A DNA stretch of 60,849 nucleotides, counting the filler, from Vannella sp. (taxonomy: Eukaryota): the NCBI GenBank assembly GCA_023345925.1. It is 6 parts of 6 records of this genome, joined end to end, with 100 filler letters (N's around TTAATTAATTAA, not from the genome) between each part and the next. Parts side by side here need not be neighbours in the genome. Positions count along the whole stretch, not along the records: positions 6,427 to 19,808 come from JAJQQN010000965.1; 5 more parts are not named here. One strand, written 5' to 3'. Of this stretch, positions 3,975 to 51,873 are shown piece after piece. The translations under genes were made by a program, and so were the position numbers. Every line of letters starts with the position of its first letter. The first letter of the stretch is position 1. The notes beneath the pieces are model-generated. The model saw only the letters and a list, made by a program, of their open reading frames with translations. It was not told the DNA's origin and did no database searches.

Positions 3975-6251
3975 TTAAAAGGGCTCAGTTGCTGCTCTGA
4001 CGCTTTGGAGGATCTCCTCAATGCGTTTGCGATAGTCCGCATCCTCGCACTGAATTTCCTTGGATTTGAGGTTGATAGTGGCCTTGGCACCGCCTTCAAG
4101 ATCAATTGTGATCACACGAGAGCGCTCATCGAGATGAACCTCGTTAAAGTGACGCCGGAGGAAGCAGCAAATCGTTTGAGCTTGATCCATGGCGTTGGGG
4201 CAGCAGCTCTCCATGAGTGTATGGGTCGCTGGATTCACCTCAATCTGCAAGATGAGAGACACAATCGAGTCCGCTAGCATGTCATTCACAGGGTCACATT
4301 GCCACTCCACATGCAGGTACTTTCCCTTCTTCGCGTCATAAAGCACATAAACTGATTCACTCACGAAGAGAGCCTCAGGGAACTTTTTGTGCTCTTTCTT
4401 CTCGACGCTATCATACATGGCACTCAGGCAAGCCGAAAGCAGTTTGAATGGGTGGCGGAAAGGAACTAATGGAACGTAAGAATCTCCATATCGGCGAGGA
4501 TCAGTCAGAGAACTTACCTCGCTGGCTTTGAGAGACTTTCACTGTAGTTAAGTTAGAATACGCAGCAATGTCATCGACAGAGATAAGAGAATGCTTGAAT
4601 CCCTTCTCCACGAGGATGCCCGAGATGACTTGACCCTCCTGGAGACCATTCCTGGCCAGATCTCCAATCACCACCGCTCTACTCTCAGATTTGAACTCGA
4701 TAGCGACAGTCTCAGTATTGGGCGGCGTGTAAATGGCGCACTTTCGCCCATTCCTGACAAACTGCTCCTCGAGATCTCTCTTCAGGTGAGCCATTTCATT
4801 GGCCTCTCCGTGAACGAGCACAATGTGAGGGGGTTGAAGAATGTCAATAAACTCTTTTGTCTGTTGACTGTCAGAGTGGGCTGAGAAAGAAACGTATCCG
4901 ACAGACATCTTCAACTGAAGAGTCTCCCCAGTCAATGACTGGATGGCCTTGGGCGAGTTGAGAATAGTCTTTGCAAGTGTTCCTTCAACGCTGTAACCTG
5001 GAATGATAACGCTGTTCTTTGGGTTTTCACACCACTTCTCCATCAACTCTCGACTTAGACCGTTCTGGAGCATGCCAGGACTAGCTAAGACAACACAAGG
5101 TCCCGAATCTACAAACTTGTCAATCCCAGTGAGCTTCTTGATATGGCGGAAGTCAAAAGGATTGCCGATCTTGCTAGACTCGATAATCTTCTCGTTCATC
5201 ATGTTGGTGTAAGCCTGGAAGACCTGCATGCAACGGGCCGCTAGCGGGGAAGCATAGTAGATCTGAGTCGAATGCATGTCCTTGTTGGCCCGCCAGTACT
5301 CTTCCAGGATCAGCATGAGCTCTTGGGCACTTCCCAGAGCAAAAACTGGTATCAAGCAACGCCCTCCGCTCTTCACTGTCCGCGTCACAAAGTCTAAGAA
5401 CCGTGCTTCTCTCGCCTGATACAAGTAAGAACCCGGCTAACACGCCATGAGCACTTACCTGTCGAGGTTCGTGATCCTGACTTCCGTAAGTGCTCTCAAC
5501 GATGAGCACGTCTGGCTTTTGAGAAGGAATCTCTGCTCCCATCAAGTGGCGGCTCTCCTCACGCGAGTAGTCGCCCGTGTAAAGGATGTGAACTCCCGCA
5601 ATCTCGATCATGAACATAGCGGCGCCCAAAACGTGCCCAGCGTTGTAGCACCAGAAGCGAATGCCATCCACGTTGATCTCCTGATGATAGTTGATGGGTT
5701 CTATCTTGTCCATGGTGCACTCCAGGTCGTTCTCGTCGTACAGCGGATCGCTGATCGCAATATTACTGACTTTGACGTAGTCTGACAGGATCAGCTTGTA
5801 GATAGGCTTCGTAGGATGGGTCATGAACACGCGGCCTCGGAAATCCGTCTGGAAGTAGCATGTAAGCGGGGATGAGGGAGGCTGGGAACGAGTTCACCTT
5901 TTGCATGAAGTAAGGGAGAGCTGCACAATGATCAAGGTGGAAGCTTAAGTGATGTCATGAGTTTGCTGTGTTTGAGAGGAGAGTGGTAACTCACTGGCTG
6001 ATGAGGAGGAGGTCAATACTGCTCGGATCAATTTCATCAAAGAAGGGAAGTCCCACGATCCCATGGCGTCCAGGATGAACACCACAATCAAGCTTTTCAG
6101 TAGTAAGACATCAACCCGAAGAGGGGACTAGGAGGCCTACCATGATGTTCTTCTTCTTGAACGAAAGAACGATGCATGAACGACCGACTTCGTTCCCCGC
6201 TCCAAGAGGAGTGATCCTCAACACGTCTCCTTGTGGAGTAGGAATCTCCAT
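3975..6251 (-). CDS. CPSF3: CPSF73/Ysh1 pre-mRNA 3'-end endonuclease (multi-exon; a short upstream exon is possible)
   Basis: [60 protein letters not shown]-terminal EW....NDMLAD. Confidence 0.95.
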
Positions 6252-6326
6252 AGCTCGTCTCTTTTGCCCTGCAAATGACTGCGAGTGAAGGCGGAACGGT
6301 GCATCTGCCCCGCCAGTCTCTCGAGC

Positions 6327-6426
6327 NNNNNNNNNNNNNNNNNNNNNNNNNNNNNNNNNNNNNNNNNNNNTTAATTAATTAANNNNNNNNNNNNNNNNNN
6401 NNNNNNNNNNNNNNNNNNNNNNNNNN
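6327..6426. other. Artificial contig spacer
   Basis: N44-TTAATTAATTAA-N44. Confidence 0.98.
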
Positions 6427-6443: not shown

Positions 6444-8249
6444 TGGGTAAGTCCAATAGACGGGAGTAGGACATCCAAGCGGGAAATGAGGAGCTTTTGG
6501 AAGCCAGCATAGCTGACCTACCAAACTCACCAGAAGGTGGCTTGGATGCCGCCTTCTGTGATCTTTCCTAACTTGGATTAGACCTTCCTCACATATGCCT
6601 CCAGCACGGGGAATAGTGACGCCGTCAACTACTTGCTTTCGCTGCCCGAGATCGACGTTAATGAGGTGTGTTCTCCTCCCTCTGAAATTCTGATCATGAC
6701 CGCGTTCCTTCAGGGAGTAAGGCACAAGTATTATCTCCTTTCCTTCGGATCCTTCTTGGAGGCTCTCATTCGATCGATCAGTCAGGCGGTAGTCATCCCT
6801 AATAACCGGATGTTGTCTCACTGATCTGCCTTAAACGGTTTCTTTTGATGAAGGAGGGAGAAGGAAAGAAAACTCACCTTTTGGGGATGTTATAGTATGT
6901 ATGTGACCAATCCATCAGATCCTTCAAAACTTGAGAAAGGAAGGACAGTTGTGCAGAAGAAAAAAGAAGGAGAAGAATTCACCATACTGGGGATGCTTTA
7001 GGACGTAAGCGACTAATCCATCATCCCCTTTTTAAGTTACTGCAGAGGGAGAAAGTCTCACCTTTTGGGATACTTCAGGATGTACGTGGCTGATTCATCA
7101 GAGAAGAAGAGGCAAACCCTTCTCACTTTTGGGAATAGATCTGGCCTTTGGATCATGCTGTCGATGGCAACCATCCAGATATCATCAGGTTGCTCATAGA
7201 AGCGGGAGGAAGGTGCCATCATTATGATGTACGTTAAAGATGAGAATGACAGTCTCTCACCGTTGAGATAATAGCGTAGACGCCAACTGGACCTTTACTT
7301 GGCAGGCAATCCATTTGCGTTGTGCAAACCCGTCGAAGGAATCATACAGGATGTGCTGGAGGTTGATGCTCGTGTGGCTAAACTCATGACTTCAGCAGCC
7401 CACCTGAAGAAAGGGGAGCTGAAGCAGTGGTTCGTGGATGGCCGATTGCCGTGTTCCTCATCTCTGCAGCCTTTCTGGGAGCCAATCCTCTTAAGATTGG
7501 ATCATTTCGACGAGGCATTAGCCAACAAGATGGATGCTCTCGCCACAGAGCAGCAGGAGAGAGAGAAAGCCTCCCAAGATGCAAATCTGATCCAGCAGAA
7601 GATCTATGATCTCCGCTCCCAACTTTCCGAGTTCGAAAAGAAGGAGCGTATCCACGCACAAAATCTGAAGACTCTGGAGAAAGAGCTGGAGGACTACCTG
7701 CGGCTGGATGTTGGCTCTTTGAAGGCCTTTGCTCAATCTGCTTCGGAGATGGAGAAGGAGTTAGTCTCTCAACTTGAAGCCCAGCTTGCGAAGGACAAAA
7801 GAGGTCTCTTTGCTTTGGACGAACAAGGCAGCCCGAAACTTGCTTTGTTGCTAAACTGCTTCGGCGCTAATGCAGAGACCATCAAAGCGGTCCGACATCT
7901 CAACAGCAATGGATTGATTTCTCAGGGAGAGGACGCCTTAACATCGTGGGTTCTCCGTGGGCTCCCAAGAGACCAACAGATTGTGGTTCTTTATACTCGA
8001 GAGCGCCTTCAAAAGGGGAAGTTCCCATTTTGGTTGCACGACTGCGCTCTTTGCGACTGTGAAACAGCCGAAGAGATGGCCAGCTTTTTGAATGAGAACG
8101 GACTTACGCAGGTGACTGCTGACACCATCTCCCAGACAGGTGCTTCTGGACGAGGAGCGCTGCTATTCCTCACTATCCAGGACCTTCAATTGGGAACAAA
8201 GGATCAAAAGGCATTAATGATGTCTCGTCAATATCACCGCGAGAACTAA
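6444..8249 (+). CDS. Ankyrin-repeat / coiled-coil / SAM-like protein whose hairpin loops are built from 3-nt micro-exons (5' truncated)
   Basis: Phase-0 exons 6444-6446 (W), 6534-6536 (K), 6582-6665 (TFLTYASSTGNSDAVNYLLSLPEIDVNE), 6714-6716 (G), 6786-6788 (A), 6896-6898 (Y), 7002-7004 (D), 7079-7081 (D), 7139-7228 (IWPLDHAVDGNHPDIIRLLIEAGGRCHHYD) and 7275-8249. Internal exons are flanked by AG and GT, mostly with an upstream CTRAC/YTCAY-type branch point. Confidence 0.75.
6873..7138 (+). repeat. Degenerate repeated intron/micro-exon cassettes (3 full, 1 partial; related fragment at 6427-6452)
   Basis: Shared pattern YTCACC..(T)TGGG(G)AT..TY.AG|NNN|GTA.G.G.C.RATYCATCA at about 6873, 6978 and 7057; the 3' splice-site half recurs at 7122-7138. 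Confidence 0.85.
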
Positions 8250-9990: not shown

Positions 9991-12900
9991 TTATTTGGCT
10001 TCTCTGCTGCTTCCAAGGTGGATTTGAGTTCTCTTGATGGTCGGCTGAGCGGCGATGTTGTTGCTCCATTCGCTTGCCACTCGAGTTTGAGGGGGAGTTC
10101 CTTCTGTTCTGCTCGGAGCTGGGGCTGGCAAGGTGCCTGTGGCTGTTGGTGTTGGATCGGGCAAGCTGCTCATGGGGGCAGGGCGTGTGTCTGTCATGGC
10201 CCTTACAGTGGCAATTCTACCTCGGGGCAAACAAGCAATATCCGTTTGAGTGGAATTACCTCGGGCAGTGAGAAGCCCCGATTGCGCCGAATCGGCATCA
10301 CGGGAGCGGAGGATTTCTGCTTCTTTCTTTTGCTCAAGAACCTCCATGTCGCTGAGCGAGAGTTGAATAGAGAATCGACTGGACACGTTAGGGGCTGAGA
10401 TTTTGTACTTGGTGCGAGGCAAATCCTTCCGCAGCTCCACTTTCTGGCCTGTTGTAAAGTCAGGAACAAGCGTGAATGAGAGGATAAGGGAATGGCCAAC
10501 CTGAAAGGATTTTGATCATGTCAGAAGAGGCAGAGAACTGCCGAGCGATTTCCATCAACGACTTTCCATTGCGTATCCCATTGACTTGGTCAATGCCTCC
10601 AAAATCGATCAAAATCTTTACAACGGCCGTGTTTCCACCCTTGACGGCGTTAAATAAGCATGTTTCGTCCTCACTGAGCCCCAACAGGTCAGCGAACAGA
10701 ATGTAAAAGATGTTAACAGTGAATATACCTGCTTGTGATAGTGAGATCTGCACCGCTGCTAATAAGAAGTCGCACCACATAAATGTTATCGAGCATACAA
10801 GCGTAGTGCAAGCAAGTCTCTCCAGCCAGATTCTTCTTGTTAACGTCAACTCCCAATTCAATCATCCGTCTGATGACAGTTAGCAGTAACTCTCGAAGGT
10901 CCTCCTTGTTTTCAACAGGATAGCGAACAATGTAGAACAAAGCCGTATTGCCTTGGCTTGTCTGCTTGTTAATATCGATTCCGGGTGTTGACAAGATCTT
11001 CTGCAGGATCTCCAGATGTGCCAAAGTGTAAGTACTTGCAGCGCAGTGAATAGGCGTGAACCCATTGGCGTCCTGCTCATTGAGATCACCAGGAGAGTGA
11101 GCCAATATGTCAGAAATGCGGGAGGTGGCTGCCTCAGCTACAGCCTGATGGAGATTTGTACGATCTTGAGCATCTTGATCATCTGCTGGCTGCCAAAGCT
11201 CACAGACAGTCTTGCACTCATTCTCCAAGCGAATAAACATGCCTACTACCAACCCCGAGATGGGAACGATGTGGAATGAGACTTCGTTAGTTTTGGCGTA
11301 CTCAGGATCCTCCAATTTGTGCATTTCCCGAAGGTAATGGATGTCCTTAATCATATCATCAATCCATTCACGGCTCTGCTCCTCAATAGAGTCCTTCTCG
11401 CGTGCAAATGCCTCTTCAACCTTCTCCAAGCTAAATTCTTCTCCAACCAAACGGAATTGCTCCGAGAGGACAATCTGAGCGTCTCTCACAAAGTCGTTAA
11501 TCTTCGGATAAATCCTCTGTTGTAAGGATGTGATAAGGGCTTGGATGCGCTGGCGATGAGGAGTAGAGTCATCTGCGTTATCAAGGAAAGGAGAAATAAT
11601 CCTCAGATTCTCTTGAACAGCTTCCAAGTCATCAGGAGGGCGCTCAACATAGTTCTCAGGCACAGCATCGTATTTGTACCCCATTTTCCCGAGCAGTCCG
11701 AGCACTTCCACATCAATCTCATGCAACCACCAAGCCGAGATTTCATCTTTGCGTTCCCCACTCATTAAAGAGCGCTTTTCTAACTTCAGTTGATCCAACC
11801 CGCCCTCGCATATGCCACGGTAGCGACTAATATGCATGCTGACCAGACTTCCCATGTCAAAGTTCTCCAACTGCTCGAGATTCTGCTTATAAGTCGGTCG
11901 GAAGGCGGTTGGGCGGCTCATTTGTTCTTTGTATCCAGCGATAGCGTTGGAAAGAAGGGCTGTGAGAGACTCTTTAAGGTCTGAAGGTCCTTGTTTACCG
12001 AAGAGAGCGAGTCTCTCAAGTGACTGATTGAGTGCTCCGAGCTCGGAGATGGAGCAGCAGTTCATATTAGCCTTGTGAATGACGTCCATGTCCAACGCAA
12101 GAGCATCCTGAGTGAGTCTCTCGACACCAGCCATCAGTTCTTGATAGATTGCGTTCGTTGGGAGCTCTACGAGCTTCTCCATCTGAAGGGGGCTCATCTC
12201 ACGGATTCTCTTGGTAACCTTCTCTTCAGGAGGGTACACAGCGTCCTGTAGAATGAGGAAACTCTCAATCTCCTTCGGATCGATGCTCACACGGACTTTC
12301 CCGCTCTTTTCCTCCACCGAGATGAAGCGGCCGTAACGGAAGACGTTCGTAGTGACTTCCACGATGATCAAAGCACCCTTTAAGAGATGCTGGACGCCGC
12401 GCATGCGCCCTGCGAACTCGCGGACATGTCGACGCAACACAACTGGGTCGGATACAGCAGCCCAGCTGCTTATGAGGTTAAGGATCTCTTCACGGTCCTC
12501 TGTTATGGCAGAGAAGTCTGTGTTATCACGCGCCAGGAAGGAGCCCTTGTCGGACTCTTGAGGAAGGACGTCCTTGGCGGGGGGAACTCCAATCAGGCAG
12601 GAGAACGGGTCCACTTGATGCTCACGTAAGAAAGAGAGAAGGTCGCACGCCAAAGTAGCGTGGGCGTGAGCGCCCAGCTGCATCTGGTCGACCCCAGTGG
12701 GCGATCCAAAAGCGATGTAGTCGGTGAGGATACCTTCAATGTGCTCCACTGCAGTGGGAGAGAGAGGATTACGGAAGTTGCCTGTCTCCACAGAGTCAAC
12801 GAAGAACTTGTAGAAGAGCGCAGTGCATGAACGGGTGCCGTTGCTGTGTTGGAAGGCGGAGAGAAGCTTCATAACGGTCTCCACCTGCTGGCAGAACTCC

Positions 12901-13214
12901 GCTTGTAGTGAGTTAGAAGAGTTGGTATGCTCTAGCTTCTTTCTCTTCTTCTTTTCCACTGCAACTCGCTTCCGTTGCTTCAATGGCAAACGGTCTAAAC
13001 AGCCGAAGAGGGACAAGATCTTGTGCAACTCGCCCGTCCGCTTGACAGCTCCCGCAGACAACTCCTTCTCTAAGTTACCACTACCGCCTTGAGGCAACGA
13101 GATGGCCATAGGACGGATAGACACGCCCCTGTCCCTCGTGGACTTGGCTCGTGTGGTGGCCATCGGGCAAATGGTCGTGGAAGGCGTCCAGAGGGATTTG
13201 AAAGTGGATTTCAT
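9991..13214 (-). CDS. Large helical protein of unknown function with C-terminal ankyrin repeats and a Pro/Thr-rich tail (2 introns; start may be a downstream ATG)
   Basis: GFTPIHCAA, GNTALFY, GETCLHYAC, ETCLFNAV repeats; ORFs 10713-13214, 10460-10861 and 9991-10440 join via GT-AG introns. Confidence 0.75.
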
Positions 13215-13225
13215 TGTTTGAGGGG

Positions 13226-13738
13226 ATGTTTGCAGTGGTGGTAGAAGGAGAAAGCGTTCGGAGCGACTTTCGTGAAGTGGAGTCGAATAAGTTCCTCATT
13301 GAGGTACCAGTGAGGGGGAGGAAGCTCAAGTCTTCGACAGTATGCGTGTTCTTGACAGGGAGCTCTACGATTCCTCTAGGAGGAGCCGCAGCAGTGCACT
13401 ACGCGTGGCTTTCGGATGCTGCTTTCATCTTCGCGGCTTCGTTAACGAACGAGGTGCCCAGTGCTCTCTTCTCTGTTTCCCTAAGTAGTGATGCTGATGA
13501 TGTACTTCGTATTGGCATCTCCATCGAGCCCGTACAGAGTGTTGCGCAACAACAGCACACCAAAACAGCTCTCACTAGCCACCAGGTGGCTCTAAAGGTC
13601 GCTAGACACTTCCACAACTATGTTAGTAGCTTCCCTCAAAGCAGTACACAAGGAATCCCTCTCGCCTTGTTGGACAAATGGTTCCAGGGCTTCGAGAAGA
13701 AGATTGCAAGCAATCCTGCCTTCTTAGAGGCTTTGTAG
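13226..13738 (+). CDS. Hikeshi/OPI10-family protein
   Basis: MFAVVV start, VCVFLTG, PSALF, IGISIEP, HFHNYVSSF, IPLALLDKWFQGFEKKIASNPAFL. Confidence 0.85.
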   Translation: MFAVVVEGESVRSDFREVESNKFLIEVPVRGRKLKSSTVCVFLTGSSTIPLGGAAAVHYAWLSDAAFIFAASLTNEVPSALFSVSLSSDADDVLRIGISIEPVQSVAQQQHTKTALTSHQVALKVARHFHNYVSSFPQSSTQGIPLALLDKWFQGFEKKIASNPAFLEAL

Positions 13739-13790: not shown

Positions 13791-16700
13791 TTATAATGAG
13801 GACGGAGGATCTGGCAATGGGCTATGGCCGGGGGAGTTGGGCGGTCCACCCGATGCTTGGCGCCTTGTTCTCAGAGGAAGGCTCTCTTCTGACCCAAACA
13901 GAGAGCCAGAGAGGGAAGACTCACCAAAGAGCATGGGATCCATCTCTTCCACGTCAGATGGGACAATGAAAGACCCTCCAGGACTGGAATCTGGAATTAC
14001 GAACCCTTTCCAGGTTTGGTCCGCTGTTCCTCCGCTGCTTGTGCGTTTAAACTCGGAAGGGTGTTGTCGCGGGGATATGTCACCAGCGGATTGGCGGTTC
14101 AGGAAGGTGCCTTTGCGTTCCCGCATTCGGACGGCAAACTTGTCCCTTTTCACCCATTTGATCACCAGCGAGTCTTTTCCAACGGAGAAGAGGAGGTTCT
14201 TTGCACCTGTTAGAGAAATGACTGGTTGCTTATGGTCTGAAAGGTCTTGGGTGGCTTTCATCGATGCCACATCCCACAACACGATGGAAGCTCCAGAGCA
14301 GGCGAAGAGGCATTGAGAGGCTTCTATCATATATAGATGGCGCACTCCATTGCAAGTCAAAGTCCTCTCCAATTCGATGGTGTTTTCATTTTCCCGCCAA
14401 ATCTTCACTTCTGCGTTGGTTCTTGAACTCGTCCAAATCCACTTGTTACTGGGCGAGAAGCAAATAGAAGAGATTGGACCTGTGTGCGCTTCCCAAGAGG
14501 CAATATACTGGAGAGATGAAGCGTGGATGATGTGAATATGCCCTTTTTGATCCCCGGCCAAGATATGAGTGTCTGCCTGCTGTTCCTGACTGGATAGTAG
14601 GCAACTTGCTAGGTAAGTCACCTTGGTGTGCGGGGGGAGTGAGAGATAGTGGGCCATTTCGAGGTGGTTAGAGTCCCATACGAAGAGCTGGGAAAGGTCG
14701 GGAGAGGATCCCCAGACTGTCTGGTGGACTTGGATGAGCTGCCTTATCGAAGAGGTTTCAGAGCGGAAAGGGAAGAATTCTGCAACCTCCTGGAAGTCTG
14801 ACTTGGACCAAACACGTACAGTCCCACCCACAGAGGCAGTCCATACGTGGTCCCCAGAGTACAATAACGCTGTTATGCGATATTCATGAGCTTTCCACTG
14901 GTGTATCACCCCAGACAGATCCAAATCGACAATGAGAATCGATCCATCTATGCAACCAATCCATAAGCGTTCTTCAACCAGTCCTAAAACATTTGCAGGA
15001 CTGTCAAATCGACTTTTTGCGGCCACTTTGAAGTCTTCCACATAAGCGCTGTTCCAAGAGGTGGTGGTTGGTGGTGAAGGAAAGTATTCTGGAGACGAGA
15101 TAGCCTTTGGAATGGCTGGGTCAGGATAAAGATCCTGACGTCCCGCTCTAAACACACATAACTTCTGCAAACGATTTGCTAAGTCAGAGAAGGAAGGACG
15201 AAGCTCAGGATCTTGATTCCAGCATTCTTCAATGATATGACGGAAGACAGAAGGACATTCAGAATCTATAAAATCAAGCGAGGGTCGGAGTCCTGCGCTT
15301 ACCACCAGATCCTTCGTAGCTTTGCTGCGCCGCGTTTTTGCGTTGGGAGAGGGAGAAGACGGCCCCTCACAAAACTCACTGAAAGGGAAAAGAAGAGAGC
15401 CAATCTCCCAACAGACAATCCCAAAACTGTAAACATCCGCACTAAGAGTGTACTGGCCTTTGGACAGAGTCTCAGGAGCCATCCATTCCCAGCAATGAAG
15501 TTGTCCCTCCACAACAGGAGCCACAAAGCGAGAGAGCCCAAAGTCAGCAACTTTTGCTCTGACTGCAGCACGCTCTGAAAGGCTTGCCAGAAAGATATTT
15601 GGGCTTCTCAGATCACGGTGGATGATAGGAGGTTGAAGAGAATGCAAATACGCCATCCCTGTCGCAATATCGCAAGCGATTTGTAGACGCAAACTCCAAG
15701 GAAAGAGGTCTCTCGAGATAGAAACGATGCTTTGGGAATCAGAAAGAAGTGAACCAGGGTGAAGGAACTCAAAGAGGTCTCCCCGCTCCATCAACTCCAA
15801 GACAATCTCAATGTGAGTCCCTAATGTGATGCCAAGTAGCTTCACCAAGTGTAAATGGTTGAGCTGGCTCATTATGAACACCTCTTGCTGGAAGCTCCGA
15901 AAGTTTTCTTCCATTGCAGTCGTGCCTGCAGAGAAAGGCAGCTGTTTGATCGCGACTAGCTTTCCCGGAATCGTTCCTCGGAAAACTGTTCCAAACGGGG
16001 TCTGAGCAATGATGTCCCCTCTGGTCACCTCGTTTTGTCTGAAGATGCGAATATCAGCTAAAGCAATATCCGGTGCAATTGCAGCAATGCGGACCTCTCT
16101 AGTAGCAGAGGTAATGTGATTGCAGAAGAGAGATTTTCTTTGGTTAGTGATTGCCTCAACGCATTCGCGATAAGTGAATTCAAAGGGATCGCCTTTGTTG
16201 GTGGCTTCTGGACCACGCAAATTAAGACAGTGAGTGCATGGAATGGTTCTACGATACGAGCGTTTCATCTGAAAAGCATCTTCCAGAAGACCATCAGTGA
16301 TATCGAGAATCCAACGGAAAAAGGAATCTTGGGGATCATCAGGCTGAGCTCGAATAAGAATGCTGAGCCGATATTGAGGACCATTGTAATCGATGAGAGC
16401 GGCTTGACCTTTGTAACCAAGCAGAGCCGAAGATCGACCAATCGAAAGTCCCACCACAGATGGTAAATGCATGAGGCGGAGAATGAGACGACTGATGAGA
16501 CCGTGAGGTAAGAAAGAGAATAAATAGTTTCTCCCATAACTTCGCGGAGCTATGGCAGCAAAAGGAACAATCCAGTGTTTCATCAAATCACCTTCTGACA
16601 GTTTGAGAGGCATCATAGAAGGAATGACAAATGAACAGCTTCCGCCATCAGTCAGAAGAGGAAATATGATGAAGAACTTCTTCATCATGTTCAACAGCAC

Positions 16701-19462
16701 CAAATGTATATCAGTTGGGTAGTCCATGAAAACTTGTGAAATGTGCGCCTCAGGGAGAATGCCATTCCGAATCCAACTGTGTTTGAAAGTCAGAAAGTTT
16801 CCCATCACTGTTGAGAGCCAGAGAGGATTGAGTATGACTAAACCCTTGCCAGCTTCTTCCGGCTCGTACTGAGTAACAATTCGACCAGATTCTTTGAGGA
16901 ATTCTACACAGGCAGGGAGACAGCTTGGAAGTACCTCGCATCCTCTGGCCCATTCTTCAAAACGAGTCCATTTGACATAGGGTCGCGCCGCTTTGCTATC
17001 TACGTGATGTTCGAGATGTTCCAACAATCTCAGCCATTCTGATGGCACCCGCGGGAGGATTTTTTGTTGCAAGACCACCTCGATGAGTCTCTCTTTTAGC
17101 TCTTGTATGCCAGATCCACTCCGACAACTTACAAAGTAGACACCTTGCAGTCCAGCAAAGCGTTGAGGTGGGAATTGGTATCTGATCTCTTGCTTGGTGA
17201 ATTCGAGCTCTTCTTCGTTGTTTACCATTTGATCCGTGTGAGTTCCAACAAGGAGAACAGCATAAGGTTTCGAGGCCCCAGCTAGAGATCGTATCTGCCA
17301 CATCCAGTATTCCACACGGTCTTTGCGAAAGTCAGAAACGTTAAAGGCTATCAAATAAACAGATTGCTGAGTAAGGAAGAACTGGTGGGTGGGATAAAAG
17401 ATCTCTTGCCCGCCAAAATCCCACGCATTAAAGCTAATTTCAACAGTGGAATCCGTAGCAATGGTAGGAGCAGATTGGGTCAGGAGATTTGGCGTTGCCT
17501 TTCGGTTGCTTAGAATAAGGCCTTTGTGGATTTCAATTCCGTTGGTCGAGATGTTATCTTTGCACTTGGACTTTCCCTTCTTCTTTTTGAGGCACTCAAG
17601 AAGAGTGGTTTTACCAGTCCCCTCTTCACCGACCAACAGAAGTTTGCATTCAGCCCAACATTCAGACCGCTTCTCCAAAAGGCGATAGTACGATTGAATG
17701 CGGACCCAAGAGCCTCGAAATCCCTCGGGTATCAGCGAAAGTGGATTTCCATCAATTTTGATTGTCTGCAAGACAGTGAGCCATGCCAGAGCGGTTGGAA
17801 TTGTCTCGATCTTATTGCCTGAAATATCCAGGGATCTCCTGGTCCTTCGCTTCTCTTCGTTCAAAGAACACAACATGCGAGTTACTGCTTCTGGAACACA
17901 GGTCAAGCCACAGTTTGAGAGATCGATCACTTTGGACTGGAAAAGCTGATGGACCAAAAGTTGAGCTAACGGGGCGGATTCACAAGTAAAGATTCGCTCA
18001 GGAAGTCTCTCCTCAACGCGTCGGAAGGCAACGCCTTTTGCCAGAAGTATCTCGGCTACCTTGAACAATTCAGCGTCTAATGCGCGACCAAGGGACCCTT
18101 TGGAGCTGGATCCATTGAACTGGAAGAGGGATATGTGGTTTGGATTGAATGATGAATGAGAGCAGAACTCTTCCAACAGCTCTGCCTTCTGCTGACGGTC
18201 CAATGAGGATTCCAGAATAGCAGAATAGGCATTATTTGTGAAAGATGAATCAGATTGAAGGACTGCTTCGAAAGGTCCCCTCCCTTCAAAATTGACAATT
18301 TTGTGGTTGACTCCGTTTTCCAACAGGAATATCAAACATTCCATGTTTACGCTACCAACTGGGGAGCACACCGCATGCAAAAGAGTGTTACCGTACTAAT
18401 TTGATTGAGATCTCTAGCTTAAGGGCGGTCAAGTGCAGAAAGACTCACCTGGTCCGTTTCTTGCAAGTCAAAGTCATATTGTTGCAACAGCTTCAGCGCA
18501 CTTGTTTGACCAGAGTTTGCAGCTTGGTGCATTGGAATACTACAAGAGAGATTCCCTGATGCTCTTTTGTTCCCCAAAGCAACGTCATTCCTCAGTTTGC
18601 GGAGAAGTTTCACTGCACCAGCGTCAATCAGTGCTTGAATCGTATCCGTGCACCCTCCAGAGCATGCATGCATCAAAGGAGTCCAGTTGCACTTCAACTA
18701 GGTCAGTAGAATCCCTCCAGTAGTCGAAATCACTCACATCATCTCTTTTCGAGATGTCAGCTCGGGCTTCCAGCAGTGATCTGACAGCCAGGACGCTTCT
18801 CGAGATGCAAGCCACAGATAATGGCGTTCTACCCAGCTAGATTTCACGTTAATCGAGCGCCAGAGAGAGGCAAGACGAGACTCACCTCGTCCTGCGCATT
18901 TATGTTCGCACCACACTCGCTAAGGAACTCTATGATGAGTTGATTACCTAAACGAGAGACTATGTGAAGAGGAGTCGCCCCTAAATCGTCCTTCTCGTCC
19001 ACAAGGTACGCGTGAGTGCGCCCCAGCAAGCAGATGACTTCATACGCTTGGGCAGAAGCTGCGTAGTGGAAAACAGAAGCCCCAGACAAGTCCCTCGTAG
19101 AGAGATTACCTTGATAACTCAACAAGAGTCGGATGAGCTCAGGGCTGTTCGCAGAGGCGGCTCGGTGGAGGGCGGTAGCGTGGGTTTTGAGGGTGAGAGC
19201 GTGAACATTAGCAGGCGGCTCATGTGAGAGTAAAAGTTGGGCAACTTTCACTCTTCCATTCCTGCAAGCCACGCAAAGAGGGGTACCGAAGGAGCCTTCT
19301 GCCATGGCGTTGATAGGAATCCCTGCCTCCAAGGCAGCAAGCACCCCCGCAGTGTCCCCTTCCGCGCAGGCTTGATGAAGAACCGTGAATCCACGCTATC
19401 TTTTCGTCAGACCACCACAACCAACACCAAACAGCACAAACCCTCTCTTGGCCACTCGCCAT
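13791..19462 (-). CDS. ROCO kinase: ankyrin-LRR-ROC-COR-TKL kinase-WD40
   Basis: Ankyrin exons 18380-19462; LRR 'IDLSNCGLTCVP', 'LDISGNKIETIP'; ROC 'KLLLVGEEGTGKTTL', 'WDFGGQ', 'VGTHTD'; kinase 'HRDLRSPN', 'DFG', 'WMAPE'; WD40 tail. Confidence 0.92.
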
Positions 19463-19808: not shown

Positions 19809-19908
19809 NNNNNNNNNNNNNNNNNNNNNNNNNNNNNNNNNNNNNNNNNNNNTTAATTAATTAANNNNNNNNNNNNNNNNNNNNNNNNNNNNNNNNNNNN
19901 NNNNNNNN
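19809..19908. other. Artificial contig spacer
   Basis: N44-TTAATTAATTAA-N44. Confidence 0.98.
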
Positions 19909-22149: not shown

Positions 22150-25100
22150 TTAGGCCAGAAGAGCGAGGTACCGAAGGCGAACTTGGGAAATATCGTAAAC
22201 CACATACTCGTTGAAGGCAAAAGAGCTGGCGCTCTGGCCATGTGGTACTGGGATGTTGTTAAGCTGGTGATGATTGACAACCAGTCCATTCGGCATAGTG
22301 ATAGCGCGGTTGGGGAAGGACTGAGCCCTTCCTTCGCCCTTCGTGCTATGGAATCCCAGAGGGCATTCCTCCATGTACTGGGGAGAGGTGACACTGAAAG
22401 GAGTGCCCACCACAACCTCATTAAGCATAAGCAAAGCAGGATTACCTCGGACATAGCCACGAGCCTTCCCAAAGGAGTCCGAGTGATAAATCCCTTTTCC
22501 GAGCAACATGCCGGTTGAGGGCGCTTCCGGCGGGGCAATGCGCAATCCGTGACGAAGAATGCCCAAGTAGTTCGTGATGGCTGTTCCATGCCAAAGGAGC
22601 AAGTGGTTGGGCGTCTCTCGCCAGCGAGTAATGCGCAAAGACTCCTCCGAGCGGTTCACCGCGAAGAGAGTTCGGATGTTTTGAGGGCAACTGCGGCGGA
22701 TGACAGCAAACTCAGGAGACGAGGGGTCTAAAGGAACTAGGTCGGTACCTAAGCAGGAGTAGACATAGTCATAAGGATGGATGTTATCGACTCGGCAGCG
22801 GTGTTGAGCAGCCAGAAGGAGCTTACTGGCCGTGGCAATGTCCCCCAGAGCGTCCAAACTGGCGTACTGTTCACTGAGAATGGCTTTGCTGTTCAGGATG
22901 GGCAATCCTTCGCGGTTCTCTCCGTTGCGAGGAACAAGCTGATAGTATTGGTTCGACAAGTCTGCAATGAGATCTCCCAACCGGCGGACTTCGGGAATGT
23001 TCGCGTCCTGGGAGAGATCTGCGAACCAGGCGTCTTTGGTTGCGTTCAAGTCACTTACAGCTTGTTGCAGTTGGAGCAACAAGGCCAGAGCTTGGTTGAT
23101 TGTCTCTGAACTGATGAAGCCGAGGGGGGTTCGTAGGTTCATGTCAACGTGGACGGTTCGTTTCATTCTTGGGACGTCACAAAACTCTGCCATTAGTGAA
23201 GCTACTGCAGCAGGAAGGTGGCACTCCGGAGCAGGTTGTCCCTTGGCCTTCTTCTCTTCAAGGAGAAGGTTCAATGGCAATAGAACATCACTTCGGCGGG
23301 TGACAGTGGTGGGTTCAGTGACTATTTGGTACTTCTCAGGGTTAGGAATATAGCCAGAAGGCCAATGAGACCAAGAAGTTCCTGTCTTCTGCTTGAAAAC
23401 CTTCTCAAACTCTCGAATCGCTGCTTCAGCAGTGGCAAAGGGAGTGCGTTGGTACTGGCCTTCGTCCCCAATGCGGCCCCATTTGGTAAAGAGGATGAAA
23501 AGGTCCTTGCGTGTGTCATAAGCAATCTGAAGCTTGTAAAAGTCATTCTGCCCGAAGGCGCCTTGTCGGACGTCAACGCGGCTCATTAACGCATGGAATG
23601 GCCGGGACTCGTCGTCAGGGTCGTAGTAAAGAACACGGGCACCACGGTCTGTCATGCGAGTGTCAAGCTCTGGAACGCACTTCTCTGTGATGACTTTGGC
23701 TTGTTCCAGAGCAGCCAACGCGTCTGCGTTCCAGTCAGGGGAGGCTGGACGCTCACTTCCAGTCCTGCTATCAGCGCGTGATAGCGGTTTGCGGACGGAT
23801 TCCAGCTTTAAATGAGTGGATAGCCATTCAGCTAGCTTGGGAGAGGCTTGCTCTGAAAGTGCATAGTCTAAAGGAGTCTTGCCAGACTTGTCAGCCACAT
23901 CCAAAGGCGCTCCACTGCTAGCCAGCAACGAAAGCATCTCAGTGTTCTCAAAAGTACCGTAAGGCAGCGGACAGACAACGCAATGAGCCAAGGTCTGTCC
24001 CTCATGGTCTCTAGTATCTACTGAAGCCTTCAACCCTAAAAGCATCTCGACCATGGCATAGTCGTTCTCTTGGATTGCAAAATACACAACGCTACGACCG
24101 CGCCCATCAGGCTGATCCAAAGAGAACGCACTGCGAGTCTCCGGACGTTGGAAGAGTCCTTGAAGCATCTCAAGAGCCCATCGTCGGGAGTCCATACCTT
24201 CCTTAGCCAGCTGTAGAAGCTTATGGAGAGGCGAAATGTACTCTAGAATGGATGGCAAAGCGCAATACTTGGACAAGGGAGGGAAAAGAATGTCGGCCGA
24301 AGCTCCATATTGAATGAACAAGTCAATTAGGTTTCGCACCTCTGCCATGGACGAAACAGTGTGGAAGTGATTCGCTGTCAAGTTGCTGAACAAGAGAGCA
24401 AAGGCAGAGTATCCTTGATGGTCGATATCATTCGGGGAAGCACCACACCCTCCCTCTTGGTCATCCATGTCATCCTCGTCATCCGAGTCAGCTGGGCCGA
24501 CATTCTCTCCTTCCCCAGCCATCAGATAGCGGCACAGTGCCCCATTTAGCTTCATAGCAGCATAATGCAGTGGCGTGCGGCCAAAGCGGTCCACGTCAGA
24601 CGGAGAAACTTGCTTCGCTCGGAACTGTTTGGCAATCTTCAAGCTCCATTGGCCATCTTTGGCTTCGCAGACGCGTGCTAACGCATGGAACAGGTTTTGT
24701 TCATCTCCATCCTTCGTGGCAAAGCGAGCAATGGACCGGGTCTTGCGCAAGAGAGTCTCCACATACTCGTACTGGGCACTGGCCAGAGCATCATGAACTG
24801 CTGACTCGTACGAGTATCCTTGATTCAGCATAGTGTAGGCTACTCCACGCCACCCTTTAGAGACAGACCACTTGAAGAGAGAAGTGCAAGCGGCGTTTCG
24901 AGACACCCACTCGTACTCGTGGCGTTCTCCCTCCTCATCATAAACAGTCTTATTCTTCTGCTCCCAGATGTGCAGAGGAGTCGTCATCGACGCTCCCCGT
25001 TGGAGGAGAGTCACAGCAAAGCCAGAGCGAGAAGCTTGAAGAGCCAAAGCCAGCGGCGAGTTCTTGTCATTGTTCAGGCGATTCAGGTCCGCTGACTTGG

Positions 25101-28100
25101 CCAAAAGGCAGTTGACACTGATAAGAGACGAAGAAAGGCAAGCATAGGCCAGCGGCGAGTTCCCTAAGACATCTGGCTCATCCGCTAAGATGCCTTCAAC
25201 CTCACACAAAGAGAAAACAGTCTCAATCGGGTCTGTGGTCTCAGGAATGAAGCCAGAAGGATTACCGGCACCAACCAGTGGCACTGGGAAGGCCATATGT
25301 AGAGCAGTGCGCCCGTAAATGTCCTTGGCATTGACATCTGCCTTGTGGTCGAGCAAAAGCTCTTCAATGTCGAAGCTGCTCGCCGCTTTCTTAACTGCCA
25401 GATGGAGCGGCGTTGCGCCGCTGAGAGTGTGCAGAGTGGGGTCGGCTTTGTTACGGAGCAAGATAGTGACTCCCTTCTTCCAGCGCAGGCTGCAAGCTAC
25501 ATGCAAAGCGGTGCATTGGAGGGCATCAGTCGCATCAATCGGAGCTCCTGCACTCAGCATTCGGCGGAGGAGCTCCTTTGATTGAAGCTTGATAGCACCA
25601 TGAAGAGGATAGTGCTTCCATCCGAGAAGGCAAGGCTCACTGACAGTTGCTGCAAGGTCGAGAAGCCGATTAGAGTGCGCCACGTCCTTTTGGCGCAGTG
25701 CCAAGTGAAGGGGCATCTCGCCCTGGGCATTAAACTGACCCACAATCGTGCATAGATGATTCCTGAAGTCTTTCAGCAGGAAGGACCACAAGGAAGGGCA
25801 ACTAGGACCCATATGGAGCGCACTGCACCTCCCCCAAGCGCCATATCCCGGGAAATCTGGGTTCAATTCAGCTTCTTGGACCAGAGTAGGAGCCTTAGAG
25901 TCATCTACTTCGACGTCCTTGTCCATTATCTGGAGCATTCTCGCACTGAGAGCCTCTTCATCTGGATATCCGTCCTCCAAGTGCAAGTAGTCGAAGTTTT
26001 CCGGCAATTTGCGGGTAGAAACGCGTTCCCAGGCTTCGTCTTGCTCGTAGCGCGCAATCAAGTCAGCAATGGAAGTCTCACCGGAAGTCTCAGTGTTCCT
26101 CTTGGACAGCTCAATTCTGTCCAGAGCTCGCAAAGCGTTGGCAAAGCCAGTCAGCTCTTCTTGTGAATAACTGCGCCACTGACTAAGGCGCCCAACAGTC
26201 TGAGAGAGAAGAGGGAGCTCAGTAGAGTGAAGAAGATAAGCCAAAGTCACTTGGACGAGAGAGGCTCTGGTAGGATCCCCATCCGTTGCAGTGCGTACTT
26301 GAGAACGGAAGAAAGAGAGGAACGGAGTAAAGCCCCAATGGTCTTCTGTTTGCAAGAGAGAGTCGTAAGAAGCCTGGCCCAAGCGCCCGTGCAAGAGCTT
26401 CAGCAGTCCCACAACATCCACACTACTCGAGTGATCCAAGAGAAGATGCAGCAAGTTCTCCCCTGAAGAAGCAGCCACATAAAAGAGGTTGGCGCCGTTC
26501 TCCACCAGCAGTGTGACCATGGGAAGGTCCCCGGCCTTCAAGGCTAACTGCAAAGCACAGTCTCCTTTGGTGTTAGTAACATTCACGTCTATTCCCTTTC
26601 CAATCAAGATACCAACAAGGCTCTCCTTCAATATGCGACGCTCTTCGTAAGCCTTCAACGCCCCTTCCTTCAAGTAAGGTTCCGGAATACCCTCGCACTT
26701 CTTCATCAGGTAGTGCAACGCAGAGCTGCCGGTGACGTCTGTGGTAGACACTTTGGCTCCCTTCTGAACAAAGTACTCGAGCTGCTTGAGAGTGTCTGGA
26801 GTGAGCGGAGCCATGCAAGTTTGGATGATTACTGAGCGCCCTTCTTCGTCTGTCAGGTTAATATCAACGGAAGGGTCTTGCAGGAGCTCGTCAGCAACAC
26901 CTGTGTGCCGTTTGGCCAATGCAACTGCGAGGGGAGTTGTCTTCCAGTCGTTGTAGGGATTGGCAGGCACTCCGGCTCCAGGCTTGGGCTCTGTGACAGT
27001 CCCAACCGGCGCAATGAGGAACCTGACAACCTCTTTCCAACCATACGCAGCCGCATAATGAAGAGGAGTGTTCCCAGAAGAGTCTGGCATGGTAGGGTCG
27101 GCACCTTGGCGAACAAGATAAGACACAATCTTCAAGAACCCGTTCATCACAGCATACACAAGAGGAGTTCGTTTGCGTTTGTCTGGCTTATCAATCTTTG
27201 CACCCAGTTCCAAGAGGACTTGGACAGCAAGCATATTTCCCATTTTGCAGGAAAGCGAAAGGGCAGTCTGGCCGTCTTGATTAGGACGCTCCAGATAGTT
27301 AGTGAGGCTGCTGGTTGGCTTCCGCGCCTTCTTTTCTCCCTCTACCGCCTCTTCTTGAGCTGCCAGAGCCTCTGCAATCTGAGCACCGGCCGTCTTGCGA
27401 GCGAACGCGAGGAGAATCTGAAGCGCATCGATCTGATTGTTGGCAGCGGCCCAGTGAAGCGCATTGTTCTTTCCCCGGCCCACTTGCTCCAGCAGAATCT
27501 TGACTTCCTCTGGCCTGCATCCCTCCAGGAGTGCCCGGATGTTATCGACTCGTCCCACAGATGCAGCTAGCATCAAAGGACTTTGTCCATTTGCCAGCCC
27601 GCGAAGAGACACTCCAGCTTTGAGTAGAACTCGAAGGGGTTCGGGAGATTCTCCAACGGCGGCATAGTGGACCAACTCATAGCCATTGTCGTCTGCCAGA
27701 GACAAAGCATCAGGTCTCAGAACGAGCAATTGCTCCAAATAAGCTCCAGAAGAGGACAAACAAGCACAGTGCAACGGAGTGATTCGCTGGTAGCCCTGTT
27801 TGGTAACACTGGCAGGCGTCCGGATGGGAGAAAGAGCTTGGCCATGTTCGAAAGTCAACACTTCTCGATGGAGGAAGCTCCAGTCATCATCGTCTCCAGG
27901 AGACAGAAGCTCGTCAATAACTCGTGCTGCCAGTCTGCGATTCCCTACTCGTAGGATAGCAGGCAGCGCAGTGATAAACTCGGCATTAATCTCATTTGTA
28001 AAGAGGAATCGGAGTGCTCTTAAAGAAGGGAACGCCACGTTGGAGATCACAGTTTCCGAGAACGCATCCGAAAACGCTTCTACTGCGGAACAATGTGCAT

Positions 28101-30081: not shown

Positions 30082-30235
30082 GCGCAGTCCGACAACAGAA
30101 AATATTACCTTAGCCGCTTTCCCGCCCATTGAATTCTCAACCGCCAAAATCTCAAAAGAAAAAGAAAAAAAAGAAAAAAAAGAAGACTGACATTTTTTGA
30201 TTAAATTGTTTGTTTGGGGAATTGAGGTCATCTTA
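30082..30235. promoter_or_regulatory. Putative bidirectional promoter with a poly(dA)-rich tract
   Basis: About 155 bp between divergent starts; AAAAGAAAAAGAAAAAAAGAAAAAAAG at about 30154-30182. Confidence 0.5.
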
Positions 30236-32389
30236 ATGTCCTCCTCGCCTCCCCGTAAGCGAGCCAGGACTGTTCTCGTGAGTAGTGGGGAGACGGACCA
30301 GTCCCCTGAGCCAGCTGAAGAGCCAGTAGCGTTGTTTGAGTGTGTGCTGTGCGCCTCGTGGGTGGATACTTCCGAACTAGTCATTCTTGACCTTTGTTGT
30401 CATCGAGTCTGTCGAAAGTGCTGGAAAGAGCGCTGTCGGTCGTCGTTAGAGACTATTGAAGAGCTGGCTGTCCTCTCGTGCCCTCTTTGTGAAGGTGGAG
30501 TAACAGAAGGCGACGTGATGCTTGGTATGGAGGTGTTCGAGTACCAGCAATGGCAAAACCTGGCGTACTCTCAAGTACAGCGGCTCAGAAAGAGTAATTT
30601 TCTCGTGGAGTGTTCGTCTTGTGGCTTCTCAGGACCCGCCACAGCCTCTTCTGTCCTGTCCCAGCTCTCTCCTGACGAATGCCCTGTCCTTCTTTCACTG
30701 CTTCAAGCAGAGAAACAGCAGGCTCTTCTGGACATCAGCATTGGAGCAGAAGTGAGCTGTCCCAACTGTCAGATAAGGCTCTGTCGCGTTTGTAACAAGC
30801 TTACTGGGCTGGCAGAGGACCACTCACTCTTCTCTTGTCATAAGATCAGTTCTCTCATCATCATAGAAGTGCTTGATGCGATTGAATCAACTCAATCGAC
30901 AGAAACTGATCATCCAGTAGTTGATGCGATAGAAACAATTGTTCATCCAACATTTGGAACCCCCGCTACCCCGAATGTTCATCCAACATTTGGTACCCCG
31001 AAACTGAAGTATCAAAATCCTTTGCATCGCAGCATGAGCAATGACGCAGAATCACGGCAAAAGTCTGTCAAGGCTGCAGGAGAGGTGGAGAATGAACAAC
31101 GACAACATCTATCGACTCTTCTTAATGTCCTAGCCGAGCTACTCCCATCGCAAGAGGGATACTACCCAGACGCGAGCCTGTTTTTTGTGCTCAAGAACTC
31201 TTGCTTGCTTCCCCTTCTTTCCTCCTATTTCCGCAACGATTGGCTGATGGAGAAATCAGAATTCGGCGTGTACTTTGCCATTCTCTCCGTCATTCGCGCC
31301 ATTTGTAGCCATAACTTACTGTTCACCCTGTTACTAGTGAGAGGCAAGGATGGACTGGACTTGAAAACGAGGATTGATGAGTTGGAACATCACTTTTCCC
31401 GGTTTAACAAGCAAGCGGAGGTGATCACACAACAGGAAAACCAGGTTGCAGATCAAATAGTCTGCTTAGGGCTTGATGTGAAACAGATCCAATTTGAAAT
31501 CGAAGCAATGGCCAACATTTGGGCGGGTGGCATTCAAGCCAAGTATCTTTTGGAGCCGACAAACTCGATTCCGATTACTGACAGCTCAGAGGGCATTCAA
31601 GAGCCTTCCCACGAAGCAGAATACGTCGAGAAAATGCGCAATCTCAACCAGTTCGACTTTTTGTCCCCTTTCCCCCCCTTGCCAAGAGCACGTTACATGC
31701 CTGAAATGGAATCTGCATGGCAACACTTCTCAGGATCTCCTGCCACTATCTCGAGGATCTCTCGCGAATTCTCGTCTCTCTCTAGTTCTCTCCCGCTTTC
31801 GTATCATTCTGGAATCTTCGTGAGAGTGAATGAGGAGCAAATCAATCAAGTGCGCTTTTTGATCATCGGTCCTGCTGGAACCCCTTACGAGAATGGATGC
31901 TTCTTATTTGACATGAACTTTACCAATACCTACCCAGCTGCACCCCCTGTTGTCCAAATCATGACGACTGGCAATGGGAGAGTCCGATTCAATCCCAATT
32001 TGTACAACTGCGGAAAAGTTTGCTTGTCCTTGTTGGGAACATGGCCAGGACCTGGTTGGGAGCCCAATGAATCAACTATTCTCCAAATTCTAGTCAGCAT
32101 TCAATCCCTCATCATGGTTCCAGATCCCTTTTTCAACGAACCAGGGGAAGAAGCGTTGATGAACACTCCGCAAGGTGCTGCGCAGTCTGAAAATTACAAC
32201 TCTCAGATCAGAAGAAGTACAATGGAGTTCGCCATCGTTGAACAGCTCATCCAGCCTCCAGCTGGATTCGAGGAGATTATCAACCTTCACATGACTCTCA
32301 AACGAGACCAAATCCAGAGACAGTTCGCTTCTTGGAATGCTGATCCTCAACTGACCCAGAAGCTGAATGATCAATACCAAGTCCGCTGA
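30236..32389 (+). CDS. RING + IBR-like + UBE2O/BIRC6-type UBC fusion (E3-E2 hybrid), intronless
   Basis: CVLC...CCHRVCRKC...CPLC RING; CSSC...CPNC..CRVC...H...C; 'IIGPAGTPYENGCFLFD', 'RFNPNLYNCGKVCLSLLGTW'. Confidence 0.88.
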   Translation: MSSSPPRKRARTVLVSSGETDQSPEPAEEPVALFECVLCASWVDTSELVILDLCCHRVCRKCWKERCRSSLETIEELAVLSCPLCEGGVTEGDVMLGMEVFEYQQWQNLAYSQVQRLRKSNFLVECSSCGFSGPATASSVLSQLSPDECPVLLSLLQAEKQQALLDISIGAEVSCPNCQIRLCRVCNKLTGLAEDHSLFSCHKISSLIIIEVLDAIESTQSTETDHPVVDAIETIVHPTFGTPATPNVHPTFGTPKLKYQNPLHRSMSNDAESRQKSVKAAGEVENEQRQHLSTLLNVLAELLPSQEGYYPDASLFFVLKNSCLLPLLSSYFRNDWLMEKSEFGVYFAILSVIRAICSHNLLFTLLLVRGKDGLDLKTRIDELEHHFSRFNKQAEVITQQENQVADQIVCLGLDVKQIQFEIEAMANIWAGGIQAKYLLEPTNSIPITDSSEGIQEPSHEAEYVEKMRNLNQFDFLSPFPPLPRARYMPEMESAWQHFSGSPATISRISREFSSLSSSLPLSYHSGIFVRVNEEQINQVRFLIIGPAGTPYENGCFLFDMNFTNTYPAAPPVVQIMTTGNGRVRFNPNLYNCGKVCLSLLGTWPGPGWEPNESTILQILVSIQSLIMVPDPFFNEPGEEALMNTPQGAAQSENYNSQIRRSTMEFAIVEQLIQPPAGFEEIINLHMTLKRDQIQRQFASWNADPQLTQKLNDQYQVR

Positions 32390-32404: not shown

Positions 32405-32504
32405 NNNNNNNNNNNNNNNNNNNNNNNNNNNNNNNNNNNNNNNNNNNNTTAATTAATTAANNNNNNNNNNNNNNNNNNNNNNNNNNNNNNNNNNNNNNNN
32501 NNNN
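32405..32504. other. Artificial contig spacer
   Basis: N44-TTAATTAATTAA-N44. Confidence 0.98.
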
Positions 32505-44469: not shown

Positions 44470-44569
44470 NNNNNNNNNNNNNNNNNNNNNNNNNNNNNNN
44501 NNNNNNNNNNNNNTTAATTAATTAANNNNNNNNNNNNNNNNNNNNNNNNNNNNNNNNNNNNNNNNNNNN
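44470..44569. other. Artificial contig spacer
   Basis: N44-TTAATTAATTAA-N44. Confidence 0.98.
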
Positions 44570-51773: not shown

Positions 51774-51873
51774 NNNNNNNNNNNNNNNNNNNNNNNNNNN
51801 NNNNNNNNNNNNNNNNNTTAATTAATTAANNNNNNNNNNNNNNNNNNNNNNNNNNNNNNNNNNNNNNNNNNNN
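51774..51873. other. Artificial contig spacer
   Basis: N44-TTAATTAATTAA-N44. Confidence 0.98.

Follow-up and report, generated by a model that had tools for sequence, protein, structure and literature searches.

How can the residues that link two neighbouring ankyrin repeats be encoded when the DNA between the two exons holds no reading frame? The question is raised by a gene on the plus strand of a 60,849-nt stretch of Vannella sp. DNA (assembly GCA_023345925.1; six parts joined end to end, hereafter referred to as the window). A preliminary description of this DNA had proposed that the hairpin between the two ankyrin exons is assembled one codon at a time from an array of micro-exons, located in a region (6666-7138) devoid of a continuous ORF. 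This region does contain stop codons in all three frames. The features concerned, in window coordinates, are as follows.

6582..6665, plus strand: ankyrin-repeat exon of 28 codons (TFLTYA...EIDVNE), 84 nt, phase 0/0, collinear with the homologs P0065, P0153 and P0099
6714..6716, plus strand: one-codon exon 1, cag-GGA-gtaagg, Gly; branch-like CTGAT 20 nt before the intron end
6786..6788, plus strand: one-codon exon 2, cag-GCG-gtagtc, Ala; the weakest, with a donor GTAGTC lacking the G at +5 and an extra CAG 4 nt upstream
6896..6898, plus strand: one-codon exon 3, tag-TAT-gtatgt, Tyr; same codon in a second version of the locus, haplotype B
7002..7004, plus strand: one-codon exon 4, tag-GAC-gtaagc, Asp; GAA, Glu, in haplotype B
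7079..7081, plus strand: one-codon exon 5, cag-GAT-gtacgt, Asp; AAT, Asn, in haplotype B, with a donor GTAAGT
7139..7228, plus strand: last ankyrin-repeat exon of 30 codons (IWPLDHA...), 90 nt, phase 0/0

The five units, in each of which a single codon stands between AG and GT, were found exactly where they had been placed, and the two flanking exons are exact codon multiples, as had been reported. The units divide the region into six introns of 48, 69, 107, 103, 74 and 57 nt, and they occur far beyond chance. When AG-to-GT spacings of 1-15 nt were compared in the array, five matches were obtained at 3 nt only. The pattern YAG-NNN-GTA occurs five times, whereas 20,000 dinucleotide shuffles averaged 0.10 and never exceeded 3; with the best of the 15 spacings allowed, five units were reached in none of 5,000 shuffles, and with the looser pattern YAG-NNN-GT in 7 of 20,000. 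Among the other 473-nt stretches of the window, searched on both strands with spacings of 1-12, none contained more than three units.

The branch-like motif said to precede every unit was also recovered: each of the five acceptors of the array has one, 17-20 nt before the intron end. For the three long-exon acceptors of the gene this distance is 10, 13 and 15 nt, and it lies between 11 and 15 nt in 8 of 12 ordinary introns of the window, which were hand-picked, predicted from DNA, and are 41-55 nt long. (An ab initio intron harvest yielded eight candidates, some of them clearly mis-cut.) The donors of ordinary introns include GTTGGC, GTTTGT and GTAGGA, which places the weaker donors of the array within the range of the organism. 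Two further candidate signals were discarded. The CTRAY-like motif that follows some donors at 9 nt is not conserved as a branch site (both unit 3 and haplotype B have CCAAT). A predicted stem masking the acceptor, with the codon in its loop, was considered for units 3-5 and exceeded shuffles for unit 4 only (z -2.1; one of the five units); one pair of that stem is broken in haplotype B by 7014 T>C.

Introns 3-6 resemble each other, five of the six pairs at p<=0.007 (300 shuffles), and each of them combines a purine-rich tract with CTCAC or TTCAC and with an acceptor containing a G-run. The tracts (6850-6872, 6953-6977, 7043-7054 and 7099-7116, plus strand) are located directly upstream of the branch motifs and contain 14-18 purines per 18 nt, against 6-13 in ordinary introns. 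They recur in the loose ends of other copies of the locus and are candidate splicing enhancers.

All five units are in phase 0, so any subset of them stays in frame, and a direct join of 6665 to 7139 does so too. The 32 combinations calculated previously shrink to 24 distinct peptides, since units 4 and 5 both encode Asp. Including all five yields a linker of seven residues, the length most common among ordinary ankyrin repeats in the window (6 of 10 regex matches). Seven had been presented as the exact ankyrin value; the count itself stands, but it carries less weight than claimed, the homologs having loops of 6, 10, 11 and 13 residues (five distinct loops).

All of the five units initially listed thus appear to be real, but the list was short: a probable sixth and a doubtful further unit lie upstream, next to a gap.

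6327..6426, no strand: gap of 44 N, a 12-nt linker and 44 N, which hides the 5' part of the gene
6444..6446, plus strand: probable one-codon exon TGG (Trp), cag-TGG-gtaagt, whose G-run acceptor resembles those of units 3-5
6534..6536, plus strand: doubtful one-codon unit AAG, with branch-like CTGAC at 17 nt and a weak donor GTGGCT

The W-T junction at the TGG unit corresponds to RWTLL in P0153, a homolog from Vannella robusta. The branch point of this unit falls inside the gap, and the unit is probably the end of a second array, the start of which is hidden there; one contig of sequencing run X1 extends 211 nt further upstream than 6427. The AAG unit lies in the intron before exon 6582, where an 11-bp hairpin (6531-6559, plus strand; z -4.5, 200 shuffles) buries both its AG and its GT; this hairpin also shortens the effective intron. 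The branch motif of the AAG unit is altered in one X1 contig (6514 T>G). In addition, a possible 6-nt exon (tag-ACGGGA-gtagga, Thr-Gly) is present at 6460-6465 (plus strand), only 13 nt behind the TGG unit, a distance at which the two would not both be usable; together with AAG, this 6-nt exon would yield a consensus-like G-x-T. The spacer at 6327-6426 recurs identically at 19809-19908, 32405-32504, 44470-44569 and 51774-51873, five times in all, and its 12-nt linker contains stops in six frames. Given these identical spacers, the pieces may be concatenated contigs, and the CPSF3 gene (about 3978-6275, minus strand), whose best relative stands at 72%, is perhaps not a true neighbour of the ankyrin gene.

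Downstream of the array, the gene continues with an ordinary intron and a long last exon.

7229..7274, plus strand: ordinary 46-nt phase-0 intron (GTACGT...CTCAC...TAG) with an in-frame stop if retained
7275..8249, plus strand: last exon, 324 aa, with a small helical domain, a coiled coil and two probable SAM-like domains around HDCxxCxC

Membership of the two upstream exons in the ankyrin family follows from their alignment as consecutive repeats with P0065, P0099 and P0153 (blastp of the two repeats joined, E 2.8e-9 to 1.7e-5), and the close relative P0026 has Pfam Ank. In the AlphaFold2 model of the tail (mean pLDDT 91), a small helical domain is followed by a long coiled coil at about residues 78-173 and by a pair of further small helical domains. 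This pair probably represents tandem SAM-like domains, although the resemblance is weak: the top Foldseek matches of the tail are mostly SAM but weak (best E 0.13), Pfam SAM_3 matches weakly in 7 of 35 family members (best E 8e-4), and comparison with liprin SAM domains in VIA gave Z 7.7 over 156 residues (within 150-324; rmsd 5.2), inside the range of common matches, as is the Z of 6.6 obtained for residues 174-248.

The last exon has 39 relatives of 42-94% identity among ENA or JGI environmental gene calls, almost all of them last-exon fragments, and a profile search returned 112 clusters at 50%. Full-length homologs are P0065 (444 aa) and P0153 (435 aa; its source name is Vannella robusta, Amoebozoa), in both of which a capping repeat and two ankyrin repeats precede the same tail, in an order collinear with the exons of the window; about 100 aa of ankyrin sequence plus the tail explain them fully. 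By this comparison the window gene probably has three repeats and two loops, with one-codon units in both loops. P0131, a close homolog of P0065, lacks repeat 2; it may be an isoform that skips an exon, or a paralog from which the repeat was deleted. The same coiled-coil and SAM-like tail is found behind many ankyrin repeats in P0126 and P0121 and behind a different long N-terminal part in P0117 (P0105 scores in 23 stretches, maybe through the coiled coil only), a distribution that suggests a mobile module. A protein search of the ESM Atlas gave no usable match, and one with P0153 gave nothing beyond its own cluster. No related loci were found in viral, metagenome or prokaryote collections (137 pattern matches in the metagenome and 120 in the prokaryote collection, none confirmed). 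The pattern of IDVNx followed by an intron and a 3-nt unit gave 0, 20 and 19 matches in these three collections, and none of the 39 lay in an ankyrin context or belonged to an array within an ankyrin gene; they were treated as chance. Taken together, the homologs point to an undescribed multigene family of candidate recognition proteins in amoeba-like cells.

Other ankyrin genes occur in the window. A ROCO kinase gene with ankyrin repeats, Roc, COR, kinase and WD40 (13794-19460, minus strand) carries three phase-0 introns of the ordinary kind at the corresponding hairpin position and lacks micro-exons. An intronless ORF of 2749 codons (22153-30399, minus strand) encodes many ankyrin repeats together with WGR, PARP regulatory and PARP catalytic domains, and one of 860 codons (10716-13295, minus strand) has ankyrin repeats at its end, with more short exons towards 9990. 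Together with the Vannella robusta homolog, the ROCO kinase and ankyrin-PARP genes make an amoebozoan source plausible.

The stretch was present in six sequencing runs, all of DNA and from four studies; X1, X2 and X3 belong to one study, which is possibly the source of the window. Contigs of X1 to X5 were compared, X4 being without coverage of the array (X4 and X6 contributed small shares). X5, from a separate study, supplied two 151-nt contigs over the array with zero and one differences from the window. In X1, X2 and X3, a second version was present as well, haplotype B, which is an allele, a strain variant or a recent paralog. Record 14 of X2, covering 6833-7187 of it, differs from the window by 13 substitutions and three indels. 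All indels are intronic, all seven covered AG and GT dinucleotides and the branch motifs are unchanged, and a substitution at 7085 even converts the donor of unit 5 to the consensus GTAAGT. Two of the three covered micro-exon codons are changed (unit 4, Asp to Glu; unit 5, Asp to Asn), as are the first codon of exon 7139-7228 (Ile to Tyr) and a codon at 7155 (His to Arg). In neighbouring contigs, tied to haplotype B by depth only, two Arg residues are replaced by Lys, and exon 7139-7228 ends 6 nt earlier, in frame and with the donor kept. The exons of the window copy and of haplotype B contain neither a stop nor a frameshift.

The substitutions of record 14 are denser in the micro-exons (2 of 9 bases) than in the exon (3 of 49) or the introns (8 of 297); Fisher's test gave p=0.03 for micro-exon versus intron bases and p=0.044 when all coding bases were taken. 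When the codon that follows is added to the micro-exons, making four loop codons, the count is 4 of 12 bases (p=0.0006), a grouping chosen post hoc. All five coding substitutions of the record are non-synonymous, and so are those at 7188 and 7212; seven of seven is not significant alone (about 0.13, taking three quarters of random changes to be non-synonymous). This signal of selection stems from one haplotype pair and few sites. The tail of P0001, the closest relative, differs at 18 of 315 residues, which implies that the whole gene may simply evolve fast.

Further contigs resemble the window, with 7-10 differences, in just 43-60 nt that have unit 4 at their centre, and then continue into at least three left and at least three right flanks, all different, and thus derive from at least three other copies. 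Preservation of the unit core between flanks that can no longer be aligned is what functional splice signals predict. One loose end of these copies contains tag-GAA-gtaagt, another CTGAC directly ahead of an acceptor motif. At the upstream end, three different ankyrin-2 sequences agree with the window across 6630-6672, beyond which they diverge and become pyrimidine-rich, as would fit use of the same donor. At the DNA level it is well supported that one-codon exons encode an ankyrin loop in a variable, receptor-like family.

Such exons are not without precedent, although the preliminary description knew of none. Iotti et al. reportedly gave the original account of the nank genes of Tuber melanosporum in 2012. 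According to the descriptions in citing papers, these NACHT-ankyrin genes gain diversity through alternative splicing of 3-bp, codon-sized exons, whose number is given as multiple, "tens" or "dozens" (PMC4986451, PMC13449251, PMC9815663). As far as those descriptions go, the window gene shares with them the 3-bp exons, the expanded family of ankyrin receptor-like proteins and the connection to diversification of a recognition domain. It differs in several respects: its full-length homologs have neither a NACHT domain nor room for one (its own 5' end lies in the gap), its tail consists of a coiled coil and probable SAM domains, it belongs to a protist rather than a fungus, its five units just fill one loop instead of numbering in the "tens" or "dozens" quoted (the upstream array is cut by the gap), and it is known from DNA alone, whereas alternative splicing is reported for nank. 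The window gene would thus be nank-like in layout and possibly in purpose, but not a member of nank.

Three other systems are comparable in part. For Drosophila sowah, the cited table annotates two 3-nt exons, ME2 and ME3, 1.1 kb apart, in addition to exons of 6, 12 and 27 nt (PMC8042270, Table_4); the window gene likewise has 3-nt exons, but five in a row, separated by introns of 48-107 nt and in a fast-evolving multigene family, and sowah is regarded as an analogue, with no homology claimed. The Schistosoma MEGs are described as strings of very short exons (from 3 bp, up to 81 bp) between introns of 0.2-5 kb, encoding secreted proteins of variable multigene families (bioRxiv 10.1101/2023.06.21.545858). 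Very short exons strung together in a variable multigene family are thus a shared trait; the introns of the window gene are only 48-107 nt long, however, and the splitting is confined to loop residues within a folded repeat domain. In brown-algal ROCO and NB-ARC-TPR receptors, exon shuffling is reported in which one exon equals one whole repeat (PMC13449251). There, too, gene structure is matched to the variability of a repeat domain in candidate receptors of a eukaryote that is neither animal nor plant, but in the window gene one exon equals one residue.

What, then, is the array for? On balance, the five units are probably real one-codon exons which are all included, one after the other, into a seven-residue loop that is diversified mainly in DNA and not by programmed skipping. 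Each short intron would be recognised across itself, by intron definition, and the introns removed one after another, one codon being joined each time. The array would have grown by duplication of units of intron plus codon, as the resemblance of introns 3-6 suggests; gain or loss of one unit would lengthen or shorten the loop by one residue without a frameshift, and codon changes between DNA copies would provide another route of variation. Such gain, loss or mutation of units without loss of frame would suit a loop pressed to vary, and a degree of skipping, for which unit 2 with its weak signals is the likeliest candidate, may give rise to minor isoforms. In ankyrin proteins, the loop and the first helix form the concave binding face. 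DARPins bind their targets via randomised positions on that face, as described in the cited passages (PMC8229355). We predict that the protein serves as an intracellular sensor with three ankyrin repeats as its variable binding face, and the coiled coil together with the probable tandem SAM domains would allow self-assembly. The layout is likely to vary this predicted binding surface, much as the citing papers report for the immune-receptor genes of the truffle. Two observations speak against serial inclusion: the peptide obtained with all units has neither the D nor the G of the ankyrin hairpin consensus, and the best-known precedent, Tuber nank, is described as alternatively spliced.

The latter is the direct precedent for the strongest of the alternatives, combinatorial splicing as in the truffle, in which the units are cassette exons whose frequent skipping produces a set of loop variants in each cell, up to 24 peptides per loop in the window copy and 32 in haplotype B. 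The phase of the units leaves every subset in frame, loops of 6-13 residues are tolerated in the homologs, the signals of unit 2 are weak, and alternative paths are available upstream (TGG, AAG in its hairpin, and the 6-nt exon tag-ACGGGA-gtagga). There is, however, no surplus of units, as seven residues need all five, and the loss of two or more would reduce the loop below all five distinct loops of the homologs. Furthermore, the neighbouring units 4 and 5 specify the same residue in the window haplotype, diversity is already present between DNA copies, and the ordinary introns (41-55 nt in the 12 hand-picked) indicate a short-intron setting. Exon skipping is usually rare where introns are this short. 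We consider frequent skipping a serious rival, though less likely than serial inclusion. Slightly more doubtful still is the broader proposal that an expanded family of intracellular sensors in a free-living protist, with an ankyrin binding face, a coiled coil and a polymerising SAM pair, builds both binding loops from one codon per exon and generates a receptor repertoire by skipping together with exchange of single-codon units. Combinatorial diversification at the level of single residues would then have arisen independently, outside NLRs, in a unicellular eukaryote.

A third alternative dispenses with any diversifying role: the exons would be constitutive, and introns would have proliferated neutrally by repeated duplication in a tolerant loop. 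The mutual similarity of the introns fits this, ordinary ankyrin genes of the window already carry phase-0 introns in the hairpin (the three ROCO junctions), and fast evolution of the whole family could account for the codon changes. On the other hand, the loop codons are denser in substitutions than the introns, and arrays precede both ankyrin exons seen and occur nowhere else in the 60-kb window, which renders neutral proliferation improbable. That the units are not exons at all but decayed repeats within a single intron 6666-7138 (or that the gene is a pseudogene) agrees with the direct join being in frame, but is highly improbable: that join would leave a linker of two residues, compared with 6-13 in the homologs, an intron of 473 nt would exceed the 12 ordinary ones about ninefold in length, unit cores and splice dinucleotides are preserved between diverged flanks, and neither the window copy nor haplotype B has a stop or frameshift in its exons.

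Five one-codon exons in a row between introns of 48-107 nt would represent an extreme test of how the spliceosome deals with neighbouring introns. Exon definition is impossible across 3 nt, which makes the order and the fidelity of intron removal directly measurable in this gene. Genes of this kind are invisible to gene callers. Codon-sized exon arrays in ankyrin proteins are already known, but a literature search, covering mainly papers outside subscription, found no account of such arrays in protist ankyrin genes. Should the codon variation hold across the paralogs of the window gene, truffle, animals and a protist would have converged on codon-sized exons for the binding loops of their repeat proteins.
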